Notes under the pieces: model-generated
What the model saw: only the letters and a program-made list of their open reading frames with translations
What the model was told of the DNA's origin: nothing
Databases searched by the model: none
Translations under genes and position numbers: made by a program
Part shown: in pieces, positions 5,005 through 22,012 of the stretch
Position numbering within the stretch: position 1 is the first letter of the stretch
How the letters are laid out: each line of letters begins with the position of its first letter
IMG/VR virus record: IMGVR_UViG_3300028781_000010
DNA: 36,947 nucleotides
Reading direction: 5' to 3' (one strand)
DNA from: a virus

Positions 5005-7166
5005 CAGAATCCACCTGTATACGTGTCAGGTGAAGATGGACCAATCGGACCTTCATGCGGCACAGCGAAGCCCACTGGCTGCTGTGGCATGAGGGCTGCC
5101 CCGTTCTGGATCATCGTGGCGTGACCATCGGCCTCGGTGCCGGGAATCTTGGCGACGAGACTGGCGGTCTTGGCTTCTTCCAGCTGCACCTGCGTCTGTG
5201 TCTTGGCAGCGATGTCCTGCGCGCGCGCCGTCGCGAGCGTGGCTTGTGCCTGATGATGGGCAGCCTGCGCAATGACCTGCGGCGGCGGCGGTGCGGGCGG
5301 CGCGGGCGGCGGATCGTTCGGTCCTGGCGGGATAATGCCCTGCTTGACCAGCGCCGTACGAATCCACTCCACAGCATCGTCAATGCCTGGAACGTCCATC
5401 GACTTCATCATCAGGTATTGGCCGATAGCGCCAACAGGTCCCGGCGTCTGCGCCACGGTCTGCGCGAACTCCGCCAGTTCCATGCGAGCCGTCTCGTAAG
5501 ACTTTCCGACCGTTACCGTCACATCGTACTTACCGCGTGAGAGGTCGTTTTCGACGTATTCCTTACCTGTGACCGGATCAGTGACCATCTTGTTGATCGT
5601 GACGTATTTCTCAGCCAGATCAGGCCCCAGAATGCGTATGGAGCGTTCGGCATCATAGTAATGCGGGATAGCGTCCACCAGAATCTCACCCAGCCGTTTG
5701 AGTGCTTTAACCTGATTGTCCACATAGACGAAGTTGACCACTTCCGCTTGAGCATTGCGCGCCATGATCGCGCGACCGCTGGTTTCATTTGACTGGCTTC
5801 CTACCGACGCGTCATACACACCGGTCGTAGCCTTCATCTCATCGACGGTGATATTGGACAGGTTCGCGAGGGCTGAAGGTAGCTGCGCCATCGGTTCGCG
5901 TGAAGGACCGCCTGGTGCGTTAGGGTCAGCGTTGAACAGCAATACCGGCGGATCGTCATAGCCTAGTCGTTCGTAATAGCTTTCCAGACCTTTGATCATT
6001 GCCGGAGTAGCTTTAAGCGGGCTGTTCGGAAGCTTGGCGACCACCTCCACCATCGAAGACATTTCAAAGTTGTGAATGGTCTGCGAGTCACGGGCAAAGC
6101 GCGTCATTCCTGAGTAAATCTGCTTGCCATCGATACTGATTAGATCACCCCATTGCGGAACAATCGGGATCATCGAACCACCCCATTTCGTCGGTTCTTC
6201 GAGCTTTCCATTGCCTGATACAGGGCACGAATAGATCACGTCCACATCGACTTCGCGAGTGGATTTGATCGTTACTGGTGGCGTGGCAGCCGGTGGAGGA
6301 ATAGCTGTAGCGCCAGCTGGTGCCGTGGCTGGATCAACAGGAGGCATAGATTTAGCTGCATCAGCTTGCGCTTTCTGATAACCCTCATAGTCTTCTTCAT
6401 CGACAATCGAGCCATCGGAAAGCAATAGGATCGTCTTGGGTTGCTTCTCTGCGTACCAGTACTCGGCAATGCGCACCATATCTTCGGTGCACCACAATAG
6501 GTCGCTATCACTGTCAGTCCGGGCTACATCGAAGTCCACCACTTCCGCATTAGGCCAACGTGCTGTGAATGTTGCCTTTGGAATCAGTTCGGAAATGAAC
6601 CAATATCGCGCGTCGGATCTGTCGAACTTTCGTGCAGATGGATCGCAAAACACGGTCATTGGATCAAGCACCGCTTCGATCTTCAGACATTGGTCGAACG
6701 TATCAGGTGACTCATAGTCCGACTTGACGCGCAGAACGCCATAGCCGCCGCCACACGACCACTGGAAGGCAGTGTCATAGGCGTTGTCAGCCGACGAATC
6801 GACCTCGATATTTTTGATCATGCCGTTGAGGACTTCTGCCGTGTCAACGTCCTCGTCATTGGACGCGCGGCATTTAATCTCTGGCTTGTTCTTTAGCTGC
6901 TGCCCGGTCACTCGGCGAATCAACTGGCGAACCCGATTGAACTCGTAGTTCGGCTTGTTGCGGCGCTTGGCCGTGAGATGAGCGTCCCATTGATGCCCAG
7001 CCACAAAGGCGAACTTCATGTCTTCGACGCACTGCCGACGTTGTTCGGTGTCGAACGTCATAGCATCAGAGGCGCGCTCAAGCATCTCTTTTGTCCACGA
7101 ATCTTTCTCGACCACTTTCTGCTTGGTTTCACCACCCGTTGAACGGTAGGTCTTGGACTTAGCCAT
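5004..7166 (-). CDS. Portal protein (P22 gp1-like size, helical Pro/Ala/Gln-rich C-terminal extension)
   Basis: About 720 aa, immediately downstream of terL. ATG 7166 has GGAGC 7 nt upstream and overlaps the terL stop; the track ORF extends to 7199. The C-terminal tail is long and helical, as in P22-type portals. Confidence 0.8.
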   Translation of the reverse strand: MAKSKTYRSTGGETKQKVVEKDSWTKEMLERASDAMTFDTEQRRQCVEDMKFAFVAGHQWDAHLTAKRRNKPNYEFNRVRQLIRRVTGQQLKNKPEIKCRASNDEDVDTAEVLNGMIKNIEVDSSADNAYDTAFQWSCGGGYGVLRVKSDYESPDTFDQCLKIEAVLDPMTVFCDPSARKFDRSDARYWFISELIPKATFTARWPNAEVVDFDVARTDSDSDLLWCTEDMVRIAEYWYAEKQPKTILLLSDGSIVDEEDYEGYQKAQADAAKSMPPVDPATAPAGATAIPPPAATPPVTIKSTREVDVDVIYSCPVSGNGKLEEPTKWGGSMIPIVPQWGDLISIDGKQIYSGMTRFARDSQTIHNFEMSSMVEVVAKLPNSPLKATPAMIKGLESYYERLGYDDPPVLLFNADPNAPGGPSREPMAQLPSALANLSNITVDEMKATTGVYDASVGSQSNETSGRAIMARNAQAEVVNFVYVDNQVKALKRLGEILVDAIPHYYDAERSIRILGPDLAEKYVTINKMVTDPVTGKEYVENDLSRGKYDVTVTVGKSYETARMELAEFAQTVAQTPGPVGAIGQYLMMKSMDVPGIDDAVEWIRTALVKQGIIPPGPNDPPPAPPAPPPPQVIAQAAHHQAQATLATARAQDIAAKTQTQVQLEEAKTASLVAKIPGTEADGHATMIQNGAALMPQQPVGFAVPHEGPIGPSSPDTYTGGF

Positions 7167-9444
7167 GGAATAGCTCCGAGCGCTGGCCGAAGCCTTCACG
7201 GGTGAATTGGGTGGTAAAGGAGATGTTTGGCATAGCGCCGAGGTTTAGCGTGGCGTAGTCAACGGCAATTAGCCCAGCTGCATCAGCGGAGTGGCTTGAC
7301 CAATCATGGTGGGGACCTAAGCCGATATTGCGGTTCTCATCGCGCTTTTCGTGATACCAGCCCAGCGCTGATCGTCCTGCTTCGGTTTTCTTCTCATCGA
7401 ACCACATAGAAGGAAAAGCTCTACGCATAGCTTCGATGCGCCTGGAAGCGGCACCTGCACCCATATTGGGAATGACACGCACATCGAACTGAGCTTCCAT
7501 CAACGCACTTTGATAGCTCACCTGAAATACCTTGTCGTGCTGTGCTCCATCGTGAGGAAGAACAAGCTCAGCCTTACCGTAACCGTGATCGCGTAGCCAC
7601 TGGACATGCACGCTCAAAGGTTGACCAACAGTCTCATAGTGATCCAGCACGCGTATCTCTTTGCCAATGAACTGGACGATCCAGATAGCGCATGCGTCAG
7701 CTTTGGCACCCGTTCCACCAATGTCCCAATAGGCACGTAGTGTCATTAGAGGGTCGGCAGATAGATTGCCAATGCGGCCTTGTTCCTTGGCTTCGGCTAA
7801 GGCTTTGGCGTAATACGCACCCTCCACGGAGCGTTTATAGCCACCTTCCCATATGTGATCGTACTGATCTGGCCGCTCCTCAAGGTCGCGCAAGCGCTCA
7901 CGTTCCAGTTTTGCGGGGAACTTGGGGTTATCGCGCCAATTAAGCTCGACCATCCGCACGAGAGAGTCAGTCGATAGCCGAAATCGCTTCTCGACGGCGT
8001 CAACTTCACGCTCGGGGTTCCATGTCACCCAAAGCTCAGCGTTCCAGTCCGTTCCTTCCTCACGCAACGTTGGTATCAGCGTAGACCACGCATCGTTCGT
8101 GACCGGGCTTGCCTCATCGACCCAGCAAATCAGAATGCGACCCTTTGATTTGATGCTGGCGATGTTCCGATCTAGACCGGAGAATGCGAACGAGATGCGC
8201 CCATCCTTTGACTTGATGTACTTATCGCCTACATCGTAATAGTCAGCTAGCCATTGTTCGTCTTGAATCGCCCGCTTCACTTCCTCAAGGCTGGAATCCT
8301 CAAGGCTATTCATGAACAGGCGAGCGCAGACGATGATGCCGCTAACGCCAGACGATCCAAACATCATCCCGCGTACTGCTGCCATCTTGGCGAATGATCG
8401 TGTCTTGCCTGAGTTGTGGTTGACGATACCGTTTGACAGGTAGTTCTCAAGCACCGGCACATGTAAATCCCAATACACAAGGCGGTCGTGCTTGCAAATG
8501 CTTTGTATGCCAATCAAACTATGGCGGTCGTGAACACAACTGGGAGAAAACCATGAACTATCGTGAACGCCGAGCCGAGGCATGCCGGGAATTGTTCGCT
8601 TCTTTCCATCCTGACTTTTCAGGTTGTCGTGATAAAGACCGAGCGAATGAAATTCTTGAGATGGCTCGCGAAGGAATGTTTTCTGCTGATATAGCGCAAC
8701 GTCTCGGCATAACTCCAAAGGCTGTGCAGAAGCTTTACCGTCGCTATAACTTCCCTCAGCTACAGAACTTTTCGCCGCCGCTGCGAGAAGAACGCGTTGG
8801 CTGGACAGGTGGCGTGAAGGAAGTTCGCGGGTATCTGTATTCTCGTTCGCCAGGTCATCCGCGTGCGTCCAAGTATGGGAACTATGTTGCGGTTCACCGA
8901 CTTGTGATGGAGAAGAAACTAGGACGATATCTGAAAGGATCGGAGGTTGTTGATCATATCGACGGGAATACGAGAAATAACCACCCGGATAACCTTCGTG
9001 TTTTTCCGAATAATGCGGAGCATCTTCGCGTGACGCTGAAAGGCCGTGTTCCGAATTGGTCGCCGGAAGGCAAAGCTCGGATGGGGACGCCACGTAAACC
9101 GAATCAGCCATCGTCAAATCTTGAAGCTCAACCCAGCCTCGATTCGTCAGAAAGCGATGCTCGTCCGTTACAGACATTGACCGACCATCCAGAAGAGTCA
9201 CCAAGTAAAGCTGTTGCTCGTCATATGGAATGGATGGAGTAGCTGGAGCTATAACGACTCGACCATCCAGCACCGAGTAAACGCTGCCTCCTTTGAACTC
9301 GCTTATCTTCACTTGACCTGAAGGCGTGTCGATAAGCGTATCGGGGTGGCAGCAGCCGCGCCCACCAAAAGCCCCACGGACGTCTGCTGCTCCCAAAAAG
9401 ATAGGCCGTAGCTTTGGAGGAAGCTGGACAGTGACTTCGGTCAA
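7159..9444 (-). CDS. terL: Terminase large subunit, interrupted in frame by a 314-aa intein (mature TerL predicted at 447 aa)
   Basis: Walker A is split as GAFGGRG|...|SGKTRS. Walker B is ILICWVDEA. The downstream nuclease-domain region is Asp-rich. TTG start at 9444 overlaps the terS stop (TTGA). Confidence 0.85.
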   Translation of the reverse strand: MTEVTVQLPPKLRPIFLGAADVRGAFGGRGCCHPDTLIDTPSGQVKISEFKGGSVYSVLDGRVVIAPATPSIPYDEQQLYLVTLLDGRSMSVTDEHRFLTNRGWVELQDLTMADSVYVASPSELCLPATNSEHGLSASREDAPHYSEKHEGYPGGYFSYSRRYDQQPPILSDIVLVSSPSQVGEPQHSSHTWTHADDLANENTDTRELPSRHLSSQRVLLAAAAKSSVAEGSYSDGKASAQPLELCRDVALYQQKTFLREPSQEFHSLGLYHDNLKSQDGKKRTIPGMPRLGVHDSSWFSPSCVHDRHSLIGIQSICKHDRLVYWDLHVPVLENYLSNGIVNHNSGKTRSFAKMAAVRGMMFGSSGVSGIIVCARLFMNSLEDSSLEEVKRAIQDEQWLADYYDVGDKYIKSKDGRISFAFSGLDRNIASIKSKGRILICWVDEASPVTNDAWSTLIPTLREEGTDWNAELWVTWNPEREVDAVEKRFRLSTDSLVRMVELNWRDNPKFPAKLERERLRDLEERPDQYDHIWEGGYKRSVEGAYYAKALAEAKEQGRIGNLSADPLMTLRAYWDIGGTGAKADACAIWIVQFIGKEIRVLDHYETVGQPLSVHVQWLRDHGYGKAELVLPHDGAQHDKVFQVSYQSALMEAQFDVRVIPNMGAGAASRRIEAMRRAFPSMWFDEKKTEAGRSALGWYHEKRDENRNIGLGPHHDWSSHSADAAGLIAVDYATLNLGAMPNISFTTQFTREGFGQRSELFHG
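8413..9354 (-). mobile_element. Hint-domain intein inserted in the TerL P-loop (residues C31-N344)
   Basis: Block A CCHPDTLIDT (Cys1 codon TGC at 9354-9352). Block B SVTDEHRF (TxxH). Blocks F/G VYWDLHVPVLENYLSNGIVNHN followed by Ser+1 (8412-8410). The central part, about residues 121-319, is Ser/Pro/His-rich with no LAGLIDADG or HNH motif in this frame. Confidence 0.8.
8553..9242 (+). CDS. HNH (HNH_3-type) homing endonuclease with an N-terminal HTH, encoded antisense inside the TerL intein
   Basis: Motif HRLVMEKKLGRYLKGSEVVDHIDGNTRNNHPDNLRVFPNNAEHL. HTH-like segment FSADIAQRLGITPKAVQKLYRRY. GGGAG lies 6 nt before ATG 8553. The open frame spans 8433-9242. It is the only plus-strand gene in the late region. 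Confidence 0.75.
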   Translation: MNYRERRAEACRELFASFHPDFSGCRDKDRANEILEMAREGMFSADIAQRLGITPKAVQKLYRRYNFPQLQNFSPPLREERVGWTGGVKEVRGYLYSRSPGHPRASKYGNYVAVHRLVMEKKLGRYLKGSEVVDHIDGNTRNNHPDNLRVFPNNAEHLRVTLKGRVPNWSPEGKARMGTPRKPNQPSSNLEAQPSLDSSESDARPLQTLTDHPEESPSKAVARHMEWME

Positions 9445-13591: not shown

Positions 13592-13809
13592 CAGAAAAGG
13601 CCTTCAATAGCGCGGTCAAACTCATCAATGTTTTGATCGATCAGCTCACGCAAACCGGGATATTCTGGCTGTTCCTTTGACTGCTGCCAGCCGATGTAAC
13701 CAAACGAAACCTCTTTCGGTTCAGTGTGTCCATCGCCATAGTTGCGCATCTGAGATTCCAGCCAGTCCAATCGTTCGCGGTCGGTATGTTCCATCTCAAA
13801 ACGCCTCAA
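13591..13809 (-). CDS. Hypothetical acidic protein
   Basis: 72-aa ORF. Confidence 0.55.
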   Translation of the reverse strand: MRRFEMEHTDRERLDWLESQMRNYGDGHTEPKEVSFGYIGWQQSKEQPEYPGLRELIDQNIDEFDRAIEGLF

Positions 13810-14281
13810 TCGCTTTATTGACTATATCCACCAGCGTTTGGCCTTCGCGGCGGTACTTTTCTAGCTTGGCTACGTTGGTAGGCGTAAACCAGACACCGAT
13901 AAATTTATCTCCCTTGGCGAGTCTAGATTGACGCGCTTTGGCTTGATATTGGTTTTCTTTGATGCGGATCATGGTTTCTCTAGCAGGAACATCTTTGCGA
14001 AATGGCGCAGCTGTCCCCGGTGGATAAACGTTAAAACCACTCGGGTACATTGAGTTCATCGCTAAAACCCACTTTTTCTCTAGTTCGTTTAGCTGGTAAG
14101 GGGAACATGTTTCCAATATCGCTTTTTCAAAACTTTTCCACCCAAATTCTTCTATCGCATCCGCTATTTTCCCACTACTTCCTCTTTTGTGGCCTAAAAA
14201 CCTTTGCTCTATATCAATGCTTTGACCTACGTATGTTTTACCTGTCGCAACATGCTTTATGGAATAAATTCCGCAAGTCAT
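13796..14281 (-). CDS. GIY-YIG family (homing) endonuclease
   Basis: N-terminal motifs GIYSIKHVATGKTYVGQS, then R..GH and a conserved Glu (LNELEKKW). The local region is AT-rich relative to its flanks. Confidence 0.8.
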   Translation of the reverse strand: MTCGIYSIKHVATGKTYVGQSIDIEQRFLGHKRGSSGKIADAIEEFGWKSFEKAILETCSPYQLNELEKKWVLAMNSMYPSGFNVYPPGTAAPFRKDVPARETMIRIKENQYQAKARQSRLAKGDKFIGVWFTPTNVAKLEKYRREGQTLVDIVNKAIEAF

Positions 14282-16409: not shown

Positions 16410-16871
16410 TCAAAAGTTTCCCTCTGCAACTTGAAAGCATGGAACGGCGTTGGATCGCCACATCGAAACAACTTGGTTTCTATCGTCAAAAACAGCAACC
16501 AAGCGCCTACGATCTTCGTCAAGCATGCCATCCCACCATTCCTGCTTGACCACATTGTCAGCCCTATAGTCTCCCTCTTGCCGCATAACCAAAGCGGTAT
16601 CTAGGTCATGCGTCATGAAGTTGGTATTTTCTATAAGCCATTTAACGGTTTTGTCTCTCACTTCCTCACTACGCCCGCTGAAAATCCAAATATCGGCAGA
16701 GTGCCTAAGGCGCTCCATCGTCGCAATCACCGCAGGAATGGGTAAATCTCGGTTACACGCTGCGTAAAATCTACGCCAACGGTTAGGGTCATGTTTCTCA
16801 TCGAGAATATGCTTGCGATGCTCGATGTTTGCCAAAGTCCCATCTAAGTCAAAAATGTATAACGGCTTCAT
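16410..16871 (-). CDS. HAD-superfamily phosphatase (Pnk-phosphatase / nucleotidase-like)
   Basis: Motif I is FDLDGTLA directly after Met at 16871 (GAGGG upstream). Later motifs are IWIFSGR and VFDDR. Confidence 0.7.
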   Translation of the reverse strand: MKPLYIFDLDGTLANIEHRKHILDEKHDPNRWRRFYAACNRDLPIPAVIATMERLRHSADIWIFSGRSEEVRDKTVKWLIENTNFMTHDLDTALVMRQEGDYRADNVVKQEWWDGMLDEDRRRLVAVFDDRNQVVSMWRSNAVPCFQVAEGNF

Positions 16872-16908
16872 ACCCAATCCCTCGCCATAGCCTCGCCGAT
16901 GATGTAAT

Positions 16909-17061
16909 TCATAGCCTGCATCTACCATCTAACTTCGCTTTATCGTGATAGTTACGCTTCAAAGCCTCTTGCCGCAACCATAGGCGACATTCGGTTTGTG
17001 CAGGTTCTTTCAGTTTGTCGATCAATGGACCCCATCGTCGGAAGTTAGGTTCTATTTGCAT
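16909..17061 (-). CDS. Hypothetical protein
   Basis: Start chosen at ATG 17061. The track ORF starts at TTG 17109. Confidence 0.4.
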   Translation of the reverse strand: MQIEPNFRRWGPLIDKLKEPAQTECRLWLRQEALKRNYHDKAKLDGRCRL

Positions 17062-17093: not shown

Positions 17094-17300
17094 TCACGCC
17101 AGTCCCCAAATAATCGACCTCTTGCGCGATCTCGGCCCCCAGCCCATCGGAGCTACCAGTAAATGACGCATGAGCCTTAAAAGTGACTTTCTGGCCGTCT
17201 CAAAGGCTATCGATAGGCAGCGCGACAGTTCATTGATTGACATGGGTCGAAGTCTTAAAGCTTTCAGGATGCGGATGCGGAGACGTTCAGGTCTTAGCAT
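17094..17300 (-). CDS. Small winged-helix (MarR/ArsR-like) DNA-binding protein
   Basis: RILKALRLRPMSINELSRCLSIAFETARKSLLRLMRHLLV. ATG 17300 overlaps the end of the T5orf172 gene by 7 nt. Confidence 0.5.
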   Translation of the reverse strand: MLRPERLRIRILKALRLRPMSINELSRCLSIAFETARKSLLRLMRHLLVAPMGWGPRSRKRSIIWGLA

Positions 17301-17677
17301 GGTGTTACTTCCTTCGATCTTGGAAAACGTGAATAGAAAGCACTGCGCTTCTTGTTCTCCTTTTTCTTGCAACCTTTCCTAACCTTTTCCATGGAAATTT
17401 CCATAGTTGTTCCAGAAGCAAGCGAAGCAATCAAATCACGTAGAAGTTGATTGTTGGAAAAATACTCTCCCTTCTTTCGACAGAAAGAGAACATTTCATG
17501 CAACTTGTGTTCGATCGCGTAAGCCTGACTTTCCGAGCCGATATGATGAGCATATAGAATCTTTAAGCGTGACGAACTTCCGGTCTGAAGCCCTTTCAAG
17601 CGAGCTTCTACATCATTGGCTTTACCGATCTTCACATTCCCGAACTGGTCACATTGCTGAATGAAATATATATGCAT
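17294..17677 (-). CDS. T5orf172 (MUG113) domain protein, GIY-YIG superfamily
   Basis: N-terminal pattern IYFIQQCDQFGNVKIGKANDVEARLKGLQTG....LKILY. GGGAGA SD upstream. AT-rich relative to its flanks. Confidence 0.65.
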   Translation of the reverse strand: MHIYFIQQCDQFGNVKIGKANDVEARLKGLQTGSSSRLKILYAHHIGSESQAYAIEHKLHEMFSFCRKKGEYFSNNQLLRDLIASLASGTTMEISMEKVRKGCKKKENKKRSAFYSRFPRSKEVTPC

Positions 17678-18875: not shown

Positions 18876-19027
18876 CAGTGCGAACTCCTCACGACAGCCA
18901 CTCTACCGCAGCATTCTTCAGCCAGTTCGCGAGCCTCAGAACGCTTGGCGCAGACGATGATGAGTTCGGCGGTGGTCGGATCGTAGACAATCCAAGCGAT
19001 GATTTGACCATCTTCATGTTTGTTCAT
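18875..19027 (-). CDS. Small hypothetical protein (50 aa)
   Basis: Manual ORF MNKHEDGQIIAWIVYDPTTAELIIVCAKRSEARELAEECCGRVAVVRSSH, with overlapping start/stop codons at both ends. Confidence 0.5.
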   Translation of the reverse strand: MNKHEDGQIIAWIVYDPTTAELIIVCAKRSEARELAEECCGRVAVVRSSH

Positions 19028-19215
19028 TTCTTACCTCCTGAGACGCGCTTGTGCAACTTTAGAAGCTCGACTCCAGCACCATAGAGAGGTTGCCTAGTCT
19101 TGCCTGTACTTAGGTCATGCACGCTGTTTTTCTTGAGGCCAGCATGATCGCCTATGTATTGAAGCGTATGCCTCTCGCGAAGCTTGTTGACAATGTCTTG
19201 CCAGTTGTCCCGCAT
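19024..19215 (-). CDS. Small HTH DNA-binding protein (Cro-like position; first gene of the leftward operon)
   Basis: LQYIGDHAGLKKNSVHDLSTGK is HTH-like. It faces the divergent control region. Confidence 0.5.
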   Translation of the reverse strand: MRDNWQDIVNKLRERHTLQYIGDHAGLKKNSVHDLSTGKTRQPLYGAGVELLKLHKRVSGGKK

Positions 19216-19341
19216 GTTGCAACCCTCTGTTTGTTATGCGTGTACGATACGCCGAATTTATTTTTGCGCAAGGGTATTGCAAACCAGTTCGGCAGGGCGT
19301 ACAGTTCACCCATCGGCCACCACCTGGCCATGGAGCGAACG
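19216..19341. promoter_or_regulatory. Divergent early control region with palindromic TTGCAA / TTGCGCAA motifs and candidate back-to-back promoters
   Basis: TTGCAA at 19217-19222 and 19277-19282; TTGCGCAA at 19264-19271. Rightward candidate: TTGCAA-17 nt-TACAGT (19300-19305). Leftward candidate: TTGCAA-16 nt-TAAATT. Confidence 0.35.
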
Positions 19342-20118
19342 ATGAACCAGATCGTAGAGATTCTTCCCGACCGCCTTGCTGCCGTGATGCAGCGCGAACT
19401 CAAGTCTGGCAGCCACGACAACTTCGAAGCCGGCCTATGCTTCATGGAAGGCGTCAGCTATGTCGCTGGCGAACCGTGGAGCGATACCCCGCAGTGCGCC
19501 TGCCCAGTCATCGCGACCTTCCTGCGTGGATGGAACGATGCACTGCCAGATGCTCGCCGCACTGAACTGCTCCGCGACCTGATTCCGCGTCTCGTCGGAT
19601 CGAATTCCACACCAGAAGTGGAGCTGAAACGCTCACTGTTAGCCGCTGATTGGTTGGTGCGCACCCATACACCTGCATGGCTTCGTCTTGCTGGACTGAC
19701 CGCACAAGCTGATGCGTTGGCTGGACTGCCGGAAATTACCGCGATGGCGCAGATACCGGGCATCAAGCCTGCGATAGAGGCGGTGCGCCGAGATGCATCC
19801 GCTGCTCGGGCCGCTGCTGGGGACGCTGCTTGGGACGCTGCTGGGGACGCTGCTTGGGCCGCTGCTCGGGCCGCTGCTTGGGACGCTGCTTGGGCCGCTG
19901 CTCGGGCCGCTGCTTGGGCCGCTGCTTGGGCCGCTGCTTGGGACGCTGCTTGGGCCGCTGCTGGGGCCGCTGCTCGGGCCGCTGCTTGGGCCGCTGCTGG
20001 GGACGCTGCTGGGGACGCTGCTGGGGACGCTGCCAAGAAAAAACTCGCGCCCACCGTCGATGAACTCCAAACGTCCGCCCTCGCGTTGGTCGCGAAAATG
20101 CTGGACGTGCAGGCATGA
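19342..20118 (+). CDS. Early protein with a globular N-domain and 19 tandem AA[W/R/G][A/D] tetrapeptide repeats
   Basis: GGAG lies 6 nt before ATG 19342 (an alternative ATG is at 19330; the track ORF from 19117 crosses the promoter region). The N-domain carries GEPWSDTPQCACPVIATFLRGWND. The C-terminal repeats are read directly from the sequence. Confidence 0.65.
   Translation: MNQIVEILPDRLAAVMQRELKSGSHDNFEAGLCFMEGVSYVAGEPWSDTPQCACPVIATFLRGWNDALPDARRTELLRDLIPRLVGSNSTPEVELKRSLLAADWLVRTHTPAWLRLAGLTAQADALAGLPEITAMAQIPGIKPAIEAVRRDASAARAAAGDAAWDAAGDAAWAAARAAAWDAAWAAARAAAWAAAWAAAWDAAWAAAGAAARAAAWAAAGDAAGDAAGDAAKKKLAPTVDELQTSALALVAKMLDVQA
19801..20028 (+). repeat. 19 head-to-tail copies of the 12-nt unit GCTGCT[C/G/T]GGG[A/C]C
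   Basis: Counted unit by unit. Only unit positions 7 and 11 vary. A degenerate 20th unit, GCTGCCAAGAAA, follows. Confidence 0.95.
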
Positions 20119-20261
20119 CCACCAACCGCACCTTCCGCTGCCGCATCGCCCGAATGAACGACGGCGCGATCCAGACGATGAGCTACATCGGACCGATGGA
20201 TGGCGTGCCGGTTGGCTGGTCGATCGTGATGCGCCGCGTGGCGATGAAGGTGGCGGCATGA
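20115..20261 (+). CDS. Small hypothetical protein (48 aa)
   Basis: Manual ORF MTTNRTFRCRIARMNDGAIQTMSYIGPMDGVPVGWSIVMRRVAMKVAA, with ATGA overlaps at both ends. Confidence 0.45.
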   Translation: MTTNRTFRCRIARMNDGAIQTMSYIGPMDGVPVGWSIVMRRVAMKVAA

Positions 20262-20958: not shown

Positions 20959-21146
20959 ATGTTTTCAAGTTTTTCTTGATCGTTATTTTTCTAGTCATTG
21001 TTCTTGGCTTCGTTATTCCGTTTCTTGTAAGTGCAAATGATGATATGAGCGTTGGTATTGGTATCGTCATATTGCTCGCACTTCTCTACATACCCGCTCG
21101 AATGATCGAGCGGAAATTCAAACCCAAGGGAAATATCACACCATGA
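20955..21146 (+). CDS. Small two-TM membrane protein (possible partner of the SPFH protein)
   Basis: Two hydrophobic segments, FFLIVIFLVIVLGFVIPFLV and GIGIVILLALLYIP. Overlaps the SPFH gene start. Confidence 0.55.
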   Translation: MNVFKFFLIVIFLVIVLGFVIPFLVSANDDMSVGIGIVILLALLYIPARMIERKFKPKGNITP

Positions 21147-22012
21147 AATCCATTCGTTCGATTGCTGTTCTGTCTGTCCTGACGCTGGCCCTGACTGGAT
21201 GCTATAGCCGCGTGCCTGCCGGCAACGTTGGTGTTCAGTACAACAAATACGGCAGTAACAAAGGCATTGATCTTCAAGTACGTGAGCCTGGATCATATTG
21301 GCTTTCGTACAACGAAGAAATTGAGTTGTTCCCGACGTTCTTGCAAACCTACAATTGGACGGCAAGCTCTGGCGAAGGCAACGCAACGGATGAGAGCTTC
21401 ACATTCCAGACTGGCGATGGTATGCCTGTAAATGCGGACATTGGCATCACCTACCAAATCGAAGCTCAAGCTGCCCCAAAGGTATTTCAAGAGTTTCGCC
21501 GAACTGTCACTGAAATCACAGATACATTCATTCGCAATGATGTTCGTGATCAGCTTTTGCGTAATGGTTCACAACTCAAGATTGACGACATGATAGGCAA
21601 CGGCAAAGCCGCTTTGATGGATCAAGTGCAAGCAGGCGTTAAATCCGATATGTCGAAATATGGCATCCAAGTCGATAAGGTTTTCTGGCTCGGGGCTCCG
21701 CGTCTGCCAACTGCTGTTACGAACGCTATCAACGCAAAGATTCAGTCAACACAGATGGCAGAACAGCGTAAGAATGAAGTCGCACAGGCAACTGCTGAAG
21801 GACAGAAAGAAGTGGCTCTCGCACAAGCACGCGCTACGGCAACTGTTGCCACTGCGCAGGCTGAAGCTCAGGCCATCACACTCAAAAACAATGCGCTAAA
21901 GGACAACCCTGCATTGATCGAGTTGACAAAGGCGCAGCGTTGGAATGGTCAGCTTCCGACGACCGTCATGGGACAAAACGTTACTCCATTTCTGACGCAA
22001 TCTGTCAAATAA
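21143..22012 (+). CDS. SPFH/Band-7 (prohibitin/HflC-like) lipoprotein
   Basis: Signal peptide with lipobox LALTGC. SPFH-like core (VPAGNVGVQYNKYG..., GITYQI). C-terminal Ala/Gln-rich coiled coil. Confidence 0.7.
   Translation: MKSIRSIAVLSVLTLALTGCYSRVPAGNVGVQYNKYGSNKGIDLQVREPGSYWLSYNEEIELFPTFLQTYNWTASSGEGNATDESFTFQTGDGMPVNADIGITYQIEAQAAPKVFQEFRRTVTEITDTFIRNDVRDQLLRNGSQLKIDDMIGNGKAALMDQVQAGVKSDMSKYGIQVDKVFWLGAPRLPTAVTNAINAKIQSTQMAEQRKNEVAQATAEGQKEVALAQARATATVATAQAEAQAITLKNNALKDNPALIELTKAQRWNGQLPTTVMGQNVTPFLTQSVK

Follow-up and report, generated by a model that had tools for sequence, protein, structure and literature searches.

A widespread family of phage proteins with near-identical 12-nt repeats that vary at two coding positions

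Introduction

Transcription activator-like (TAL) effectors carry repeats of 33-35 residues that differ at two adjacent specificity residues (12 and 13), and one DNA base is read per unit. In Alacoil packing and in the flounder 'Maxi' antifreeze protein, long Ala-rich repeat helices fold back on themselves. Fungal NOD-like receptors (NLRs) provide a further precedent: the WD40 repeats with 'high internal conservation' (HIC) of Podospora het-d/het-e undergo concerted evolution with few diversifying codons, their unit number and order are polymorphic, short-read assemblies fail on them, and a correct assembly needs long reads (PMC12222747). Here we analyse a phage gene with a comparable repeat array. 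It lies in the IMG/VR virus record IMGVR_UViG_3300028781_000010, a stretch of 36,947 nucleotides (nt) that is referred to as the window, and its product contains 19 tandem units of four residues that differ only at the third and fourth residue.

The array shares several properties with HIC repeats. Within-gene DNA identity is in the HIC range (at least 80-100%), with 10 of the 12 unit positions invariant in all 19 units; variability is concentrated at few codon positions (within-array entropy across the family of 1.35 bits at unit nt 7 and 0.95 bits at nt 11); and unit number is polymorphic among close relatives (19 versus 9, as read from metagenome assemblies). However, the phage units comprise 4 residues (12 nt) as opposed to ~42 in fungi, the predicted fold is a helical hairpin instead of a beta-propeller, the combination of NACHT/NB-ARC with WD40/ANK/TPR is missing (no Pfam domain in the window protein and 73 homologues), and the carrier is a gene of the early arm of phages and prophages. 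The likeness to TAL effectors consists of near-identical tandem DNA units whose shuffling yields new specificities, but with units of only 4 residues and with no code, DNA binding or sequence similarity found (no Pfam match). Like the targets of diversity-generating retroelements, the array is a phage-borne case of hypervariability at particular nucleotides of codons that cannot become stops; it differs in having no reverse transcriptase, template repeat or adenine-specific randomisation. The predicted Ala-rich antiparallel helical hairpin recalls Alacoil and Maxi, although nothing matched in structure (fold search E > 5) or sequence and the phage period is 4, not 7 or 11. The family belongs with neither HIC NLRs nor TAL effectors, HIC repeats being the closest concept.

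Taken as a whole, we consider it moderately probable that the array evolves in concert through turnover of units while selection keeps diversity at two residues, that it folds into a hairpin, and that the protein acts early as a binder in conflict.

Results

The repeat array and its gene

The array at 19801-20028 (228 nt) parses exactly, unit by unit, as 19 copies of GCTGCT[C/G/T]GGG[A/C]C. Position 7 of the unit is T in nine copies, G in six and C in four, position 11 is C in 11 and A in eight, and the remaining ten positions are identical in 19 of 19 units. The array lies in frame 0 of its open reading frame (ORF) and encodes (Ala-Ala-[Trp/Arg/Gly]-[Ala/Asp])19 at residues 154-229, with 9 W, 6 G and 4 R at the third residue of the units and 11 A and 8 D at the fourth. 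Units 1-10 read AARA AAGD AAWD AAGD AAWA AARA AAWD AAWA AARA AAWA, and units 11-19 read AAWA AAWD AAWA AAGA AARA AAWA AAGD AAGD AAGD, so that five of the six possible unit types are present and Arg-Asp is the missing one. Tandem Repeats Finder, run on the whole 36.9-kb window, returned a single array (19799-20033, period 12, 19.6 copies, score 344), and the unit expression had no second match anywhere else in the window. The claim of a sequence-only reading of this stretch, 19 units that vary only at two non-synonymous positions, therefore proved correct in every detail by parse, Tandem Repeats Finder and translation, with the caveat that the unit number and order of such an array can be wrong in a short-read assembly. 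A degenerate 20th unit, GCTGCCAAGAAA (AAKK), follows directly at 20029-20040.

The gene most likely starts at ATG 19342, because its homologues begin at the equivalent residue (MTIAVEVLPDRL...). The mechanical ORF begins further upstream, at ATG 19117, which is an unlikely start; the stop codon is at 20116-20118. The gene and its parts are as follows.

19342..20118, + strand: repeat gene, 258 aa plus stop, consisting of conserved base, repeat array and C-terminal helix (ORF list and homologue alignment)
19332..19335, + strand: GGAG ribosome-binding site, 6 nt before ATG 19342 (read from the sequence)
19342..19743, + strand: conserved N-terminal helical domain, residues 1-134 (family alignments; AlphaFold2 predicted local distance difference test score, pLDDT, 90-98)
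19744..19800, + strand: conserved pre-array helix, residues 135-153, ...IKPAIEAVRRDAS (part of AlphaFold2 helix H135-193)
19801..20028, + strand: array of 19 x 12 nt, (AA[W/R/G][A/D])19 (unit parse, Tandem Repeats Finder)
20029..20115, + strand: degenerate 20th unit (AAKK) and conserved C-terminal helix KLAPTVDELQTSALALVAKMLDVQA (family consensus; AlphaFold2 pLDDT 91-97)

Variation within arrays across the family

The window array is one of many with the same behaviour. In 81 arrays comprising 1411 units, we counted the units that deviate from the majority of their own array. At nt 7, 690 units deviated (49%) and at nt 11, 500 (35%), compared to 35 (2.5%), 7 (0.5%) and 8 (0.6%) at the synonymous positions nt 3, nt 6 and nt 12. 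Within-array entropy (102 arrays of at least 8 units) peaked at nt 7 and nt 11 with the values given above and ranged from 0 to 0.33 bits elsewhere. The two Ala third positions had an entropy of 0.12 and 0.09 bits and were invariant in 81-85% of the arrays. Between arrays, the same Ala codons vary freely, with 11 different codon pairs each fixed in some arrays. The confinement of variation to two coding positions is hence a rule of the family, and the ordinary synonymous divergence between the units of homologues that had been named beforehand as evidence to the contrary was looked for and not found. Assemblies of isolates gave the same result: in Sphingobium baderi (22 units) and Rhodovarius lipocyclicus (27 units), nt 7 and nt 11 are the only positions that vary, so that the pattern is not an assembly artefact.

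We compared codon choice inside the arrays (127 loci, 1972 units) with that in the part of each gene that encodes the N-terminal domain. At the third residue, where R (626 units), W (608) and G (503) occur, Arg was encoded by AGG in 67%, by CGG in 32% and by CGC in 0% of cases; in the N-domains, CGC accounts for 49% and AGG for 4%. Gly was GGG in 99% of cases versus 19% in the N-domains. Ala at the fourth residue was GCY in 98% and GCG in 2%, versus 38% GCG in the N-domains. Codon 3 thus has the form NGG throughout the family and codon 4 the form G[A/C]Y, and the Arg and Gly codons are one step from the Trp codon TGG. Toggling at nt 11 is almost exclusively between A and C (GCC 580 and GAC 557 versus GTC 31 and GGC 10). 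No array has more than three alleles at nt 7, and arrays that mix AGG and CGG are very rare, 2 of 76 against 61.5 expected under independent draws. In a sub-family, the variable positions are nt 7 and nt 8 instead of nt 7 and nt 11 (L009, L089 and L095, with W/E/G/R and a constant Ser). The units of this sub-family, to which L076 and L058 also belong, read AA[W/E/G/R]S, the Ser codon being AGC or TCG.

Turnover of the arrays

Close relatives differ in unit number, as had been anticipated from the in-frame unit length. The contig L001, whose flanks are 99.5-99.7% identical to the window, holds 9 units as opposed to 19, corresponding to window units 1-3 and 13-18; L042 and L044 differ ~2.5-fold in array length and L096 and L039 by a four-unit block, all of these comparisons resting on metagenome assemblies. 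The states that are fixed array-wide (Ala codons, Arg codon) are shared at near background level already at 75-90% N-domain identity, which indicates that arrays turn over much faster than the remainder of the gene. The concerted evolution with diversification at two positions proposed in the sequence-only reading is upheld by these data, whereas a 'recent expansion' peculiar to this phage gives way to a family-wide steady state.

Concerted evolution by gain, loss and recombination or crossover of units keeps them near-identical in DNA, and in the simplest model selection at the protein level would maintain the mix of W/R/G and A/D against this homogenisation. Trp is encoded by TGG only and Asp by GAY only. 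An array-wide change would destroy the Trp units if it hit the GG of nt 8-9 and the Asp units if it hit the pyrimidine of nt 12; these bases would persist for this reason, which would explain the odd codon usage without a mutator. Selection would act on the protein and not on DNA heterogeneity, since synonymous sites, which are equally able to interrupt the repeat, are not used; selection for DNA heterogeneity as a stabiliser of the repeat was ruled out on the same ground. A conserved DNA motif (Chi-like sequence, restriction site or G-quadruplex) was rejected as primary cause, given that the Ala codons differ while the peptide pattern is kept.

Two further explanations of the pattern were weighed. 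Programmed, site-directed hypermutation by a retroelement or an unknown mutator, randomising nt 7 and nt 11 in each unit, would fit the restriction of variation to two nucleotides that are the sole A-capable unit positions in the window, the use of NGG and GNC codons that cannot turn into stops, and a polymorphism ~14-100 times above that of adjacent synonymous sites. We nevertheless regard it as very improbable. Of the window and 164 loci, 165 sequences in all, just two have a second array within ~6 kb, and the one that was inspected, on L061, is a different (AASH)n repeat and not a template copy. There is no reverse transcriptase among the 28 window ORFs scanned (PHROGs and Pfam; 20 of the 24 ORFs of at least 150 aa) and no RVT family in six prophage contexts (precomputed Pfam annotation). 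Moreover, the near-exclusive use of either AGG or CGG per array indicates that nt 7 is inherited and spread by unit duplication, not re-drawn; nt 11 is nearly restricted to A and C; and the sub-family that varies nt 7 and nt 8 indicates that variable sites follow the choice of residue and not a fixed mutator geometry. A diversity-generating retroelement in particular was rejected, having neither template repeat nor reverse transcriptase and an allele pattern of the wrong kind. An assembly artefact, or an element acting purely at the DNA or RNA level (a recombination hotspot or G-rich structure) to which the reading frame is incidental, is in our view extremely improbable. It would be consistent with the breakage or collapse of arrays by assemblers, with the failure of Illumina assemblies on comparable repeats (PMC12222747) and with the GGG run in every unit. 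In contrast, the pattern recurs in the isolate assemblies (Sphingobium baderi and Rhodovarius; L104, L164), most family ORFs remain intact through the array, and the Ala codons differ between arrays, so that no DNA motif is conserved as the amino-acid pattern is. The diversification is probably due to selection and concerted evolution rather than to a programmed mutator.

A large family without named members

Searches with the window protein returned more than 2800 homologues at E <= 1e-3, and every given name was 'hypothetical'. With a profile of the N-domain, 4469 clusters (50% identity) were matched at E <= 1e-10, and the number rose to 7545 at E <= 1e-3. IMG/VR contains relatives on 241 stretches, and a further 89 stretches come from genomes of many phyla, among them Proteobacteria, Actinobacteria, Acidobacteria, Planctomycetes, Gemmatimonadota and Chloroflexi. 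Common to all members are a conserved domain of ~134 residues, the helix that precedes the array, the (AAxZ)n array itself, which varies greatly in length, and the C-terminal helix. Invariant residues of the N-domain include H25, C33, E36, D48, P50, C52, F60, N65, R73, R97, D103, W104, R107, W113 and P130, and C54 is kept in at least 90% of the aligned sequences; judged from conservation, the base may bind zinc via H25/C33/C52/C54. The pre-array helix has the motif ...EAVRxDAxAA across the family, and the consensus of the C-terminal helix is L.PT..ELQ.SA..LVERMI.

Complete ORFs carry 4-54 units (median 17). Of 162 family ORFs, 119 read through the array to a stop codon, the intact ones ending in the conserved C-terminal helix, and 43 leave the contig end in or near the array (e.g., L007, L012, L017, L019 and L022). 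Arrays of this family are systematic breakpoints of metagenome assemblies.

The window protein matched no Pfam family at E <= 1, and none recurred among the 73 homologues except for weak matches to DUF5578 in 9 of them (best E = 0.0085). NCBIfam had no match, PADLOC had no family at E <= 1, the family profile found nothing below E = 0.7 among PDB sequences, and the PHROG matches were to families of unknown function. An Imm5-like alanine-rich immunity protein was considered and dropped, as there was no Pfam match and PMC3482391 contained nothing relevant. In a search for further alleles of the same phage, neither metagenome_contigs nor viral_contigs contained an exact 30-mer that spans the beginning of the array, and phages and Escherichia coli genomes gave no near match.

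Some members depart from the common form. In distant homologues, a degenerate, non-repetitive Ala-rich region (e.g., REAAWACAGAAAWAAARVAVGD) replaces the homogeneous array. They come from Methylobacterium (L128, L131, L137, L140, L144) and from Solirubrobacteraceae and another Actinomycetota metagenome-assembled genome (L157-L159, L161), and their sequences suggest that the homogenised state was lost, or not yet gained. Four arrays located past position 6001 (L132, L138, L142, L147) give out-of-frame readings such as LRGT..., GRRL... and PGTL...; these are pseudogenes or GGG/GGGG homopolymer errors, and at least two of the four are on long, chromosome-scale contigs. The (AASH)n tetrapeptide array of L061 (3365-3832, - strand) is unrelated, lying in another ORF ~2.5 kb upstream on the IMG/VR contig of a family member.

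Predicted structure

AlphaFold2, run on the window protein with 73 sequences, gave a model with a pLDDT of 89 and a predicted template modelling score of 0.77. Residues 1-134 form a helical base (pLDDT 90-98), and two long helices, H135-193 and H197-254, form a hairpin with its turn at residues 194-196, near the middle of the array. The pre-array helix is the first strand at the base of the hairpin, and the C-terminal helix is modelled as packing back on the base (pLDDT 91-97). When modelled alone, the N-terminal domain was poorly predicted (pLDDT 63). A fold search of the PDB found no structural relative (E > 5), and only uncharacterised phage proteins were matched in BFVD. The sequence-only reading had described a helix-prone array fused to a globular N-domain, with which the helical base and all-helical array of the model agree; the single long helix or solenoid that it considered is replaced in the model by an antiparallel hairpin.

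According to this model, the pre-array and C-terminal helices would anchor both array ends to the conserved helical base. With both conserved flanks anchored, the array must loop out, its length being set by unit number. The Ala-rich array would then protrude as an antiparallel helical hairpin, and its W/R/G and A/D residues would determine the surface.

Genomic setting

The window is from a P22-like podovirus, with a P22-type portal, large terminase, major head protein, ejection proteins and tail fibre, and its portal shares only 38% identity with that of Xylella phage Xfas53, the best relative in culture. The first gene on the + strand past a 126-bp gap is the repeat gene, which faces a divergent regulator. 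The position directly after a divergent early region, as the sequence-only reading had it, is borne out by this gap and this regulator. The neighbouring features are listed below.

19024..19215, - strand: divergent 63-aa helix-turn-helix regulator, Cro-like or repressor-like (phrog_6831 E = 6e-9, phrog_6223 E = 4e-7)
19216..19341, no strand: intergenic region of 126 bp between regulator and repeat gene, presumably with divergent promoters (gene layout)
20115..20261, + strand: 48-aa ORF, its ATG overlapping the repeat-gene stop (ATGA) (ORF list)

The ATGA overlap suggests that the repeat gene and the 48-aa ORF would be translationally coupled. The operon continues with a P22_Y8K6-like gene (Phage_P22_Y8K6), a Band_7 lipoprotein, Erf, an exonuclease and NinB. 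The Band_7 (SPFH) lipoprotein gene, at 21143-22012 (+) between the repeat gene and erf, is also found in the near-identical contig L001.

Six annotated prophages carry the homologue always in the same arm, between the repressor and the recombination or integrase genes. Their gene order starts with a CI-like repressor (HTH_3 or Peptidase_S24), sometimes followed by morons or small genes, then the repeat gene and further small genes. Downstream, two of the six have RecT/YqaJ-type recombination genes, a third has a DUF3799 gene, and five have an integrase; the sixth locus, L166, ends before one. In the Hyphomicrobium prophage L168, a gene of the Acb2/Tad1-hairpin family lies at 7926-8195 on the same strand, ~1.2 kb downstream of the repeat gene; this is a family of anti-CBASS/anti-Thoeris sponges. 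The interval between repressor and repeat gene in the Sphingobium baderi prophage (L167:3823-5498) contains AAA_23/AAA_15 ATPase fragments and a HIRAN-domain gene, which are defence-like morons.

Possible function

Our tentative guess, which we hold at well below even chances, is that the protein is an early-expressed binding protein in phage-host or phage-phage conflict whose surface is changed by reshuffling of units, in the manner of the HIC repeats of fungal NLRs and of TAL-effector repeats. The guess is based on the diversity maintained at two residues per unit, on an alphabet of W/R/G/D, residues typical of binding surfaces, and on the location in the arm from repressor to integrase, with an Acb2/Tad1-family gene near in one locus. 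From the gene order in the six prophages, we infer that the role in host takeover or anti-defence brought up in the sequence-only reading would fit. The protein might, for example, inhibit a host factor or act as its decoy. Of the evolutionary, structural and functional parts of our reading, the functional one is the least certain.

Several observations weigh against the picture of a conflict binder with a reshuffled hairpin surface. None of the homologues has an annotated or solved relative (Pfam, NCBIfam, PADLOC, PDB and fold searches). No sigma-70 promoter above the scan threshold was found upstream of the repeat gene; by eye, there is only a weak TTGCAA-17 nt-TACAGT at 19277-19305 that agrees with the consensus at 8 of 12 bases. 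The homologue in Ralstonia phage RS-CA1 is not part of an early operon and has the endolysin and holin genes on either side. The array has a pLDDT of just 59-84 in the AlphaFold2 model. Across 35 arrays with 691 units, there was no mirror covariation between the hairpin arms (all |z| below 2), nor was Gly enriched at the array midpoint; hence, the evidence for the hairpin is the AlphaFold2 model. Unit order looks random, which could equally mean that only composition matters and not a specific surface, and metagenome assemblies may misstate both the number and the order of units. Furthermore, repeated array reset and re-mutation may lie behind the diversity in place of continuous balancing selection.

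Other functions were weighed against the conflict binder. The protein could be a sensor for defence or exclusion that is expressed in the lysogen, with the array as sensor as in NLR repeats and the gene in a rexAB/sieB-like slot, and not a device of counter-defence or takeover. The location downstream of and on the same strand as a CI-like repressor in six prophages, only 96 bp after it in L163, speaks for this, as do the defence-like genes (AAA_23/AAA_15, HIRAN) between repressor and repeat gene in L167 and the likeness to immune sensors, which typically have highly conserved repeats in which some sites are hypervariable (PMC12222747). We consider it unlikely, given that there is no PADLOC match and no recognisable effector or NTPase domain, that the window has no + strand repressor upstream and the gene is instead the first of an operon that diverges from a Cro-like gene, and that the repeat gene is within a same-strand run containing recombination functions. 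Distinctly unlikely in our view is a spacer or scaffold for which only composition counts, namely a helical stalk of variable length with bulk W/R/G/D content and no sequence-specific target; solubility, self-association and membrane or nucleic-acid stickiness were the bulk roles proposed. The statistically random unit order, the even share of W, R and G (~1/3 each) along the arrays and the span from 4 to 54 units agree with such a stalk, which leaves unexplained, however, why two-residue heterogeneity is kept in every array despite strong homogenisation and why the arrays of near-identical phages differ. A more specific form of the conflict binder would be a natural combinatorial binder, with a two-letter word [W/R/G][A/D] per unit on a helical hairpin and a target specificity reprogrammed by reshuffling, possibly aided by an unknown mechanism that restores variation at nt 7 and nt 11 whenever a sweep has homogenised the array. 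This we regard as quite improbable; if true, it would amount to a miniature TAL-like or NLR-like recognition module in phage-host conflict.

Near-identical repeats with few hypervariable codons are a mode known from fungal immune receptors and TAL effectors. The literature searched contained no phage case and nothing on the family, the peptide motif or such repeats in phages; the family and its evolutionary mode were not found described for phage proteins there. With thousands of clusters in many phyla, a location in the arm from repressor to integrase in six prophages and an Acb2/Tad1-hairpin family gene nearby in one locus, the family makes a good candidate for a so far undescribed factor in the conflict between phages and hosts. 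If the protein is a binder, two variable residues per four-residue unit would make it an unusually simple natural system in which reshuffling of repeats yields new specificities, with a possible use as a compact engineering scaffold. A practical consequence is that the arrays of this family break or collapse metagenome assemblies.

Other features of the window

The leftward arm of the window encodes a GIY-YIG endonuclease (13796-14281, -). Also in this arm, at 17294-17677 (-) and 16410-16928 (-), are an ORF of the HNH or homing-endonuclease-like type and a polynucleotide kinase. The ORF of the large terminase (7159-9444, -) is 761 aa long, and its terminase match begins only at about residue 313-345. 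The N-terminal ~310 residues have just a weak helicase-like PHROG match, and the mechanical TTG start may be too far upstream.

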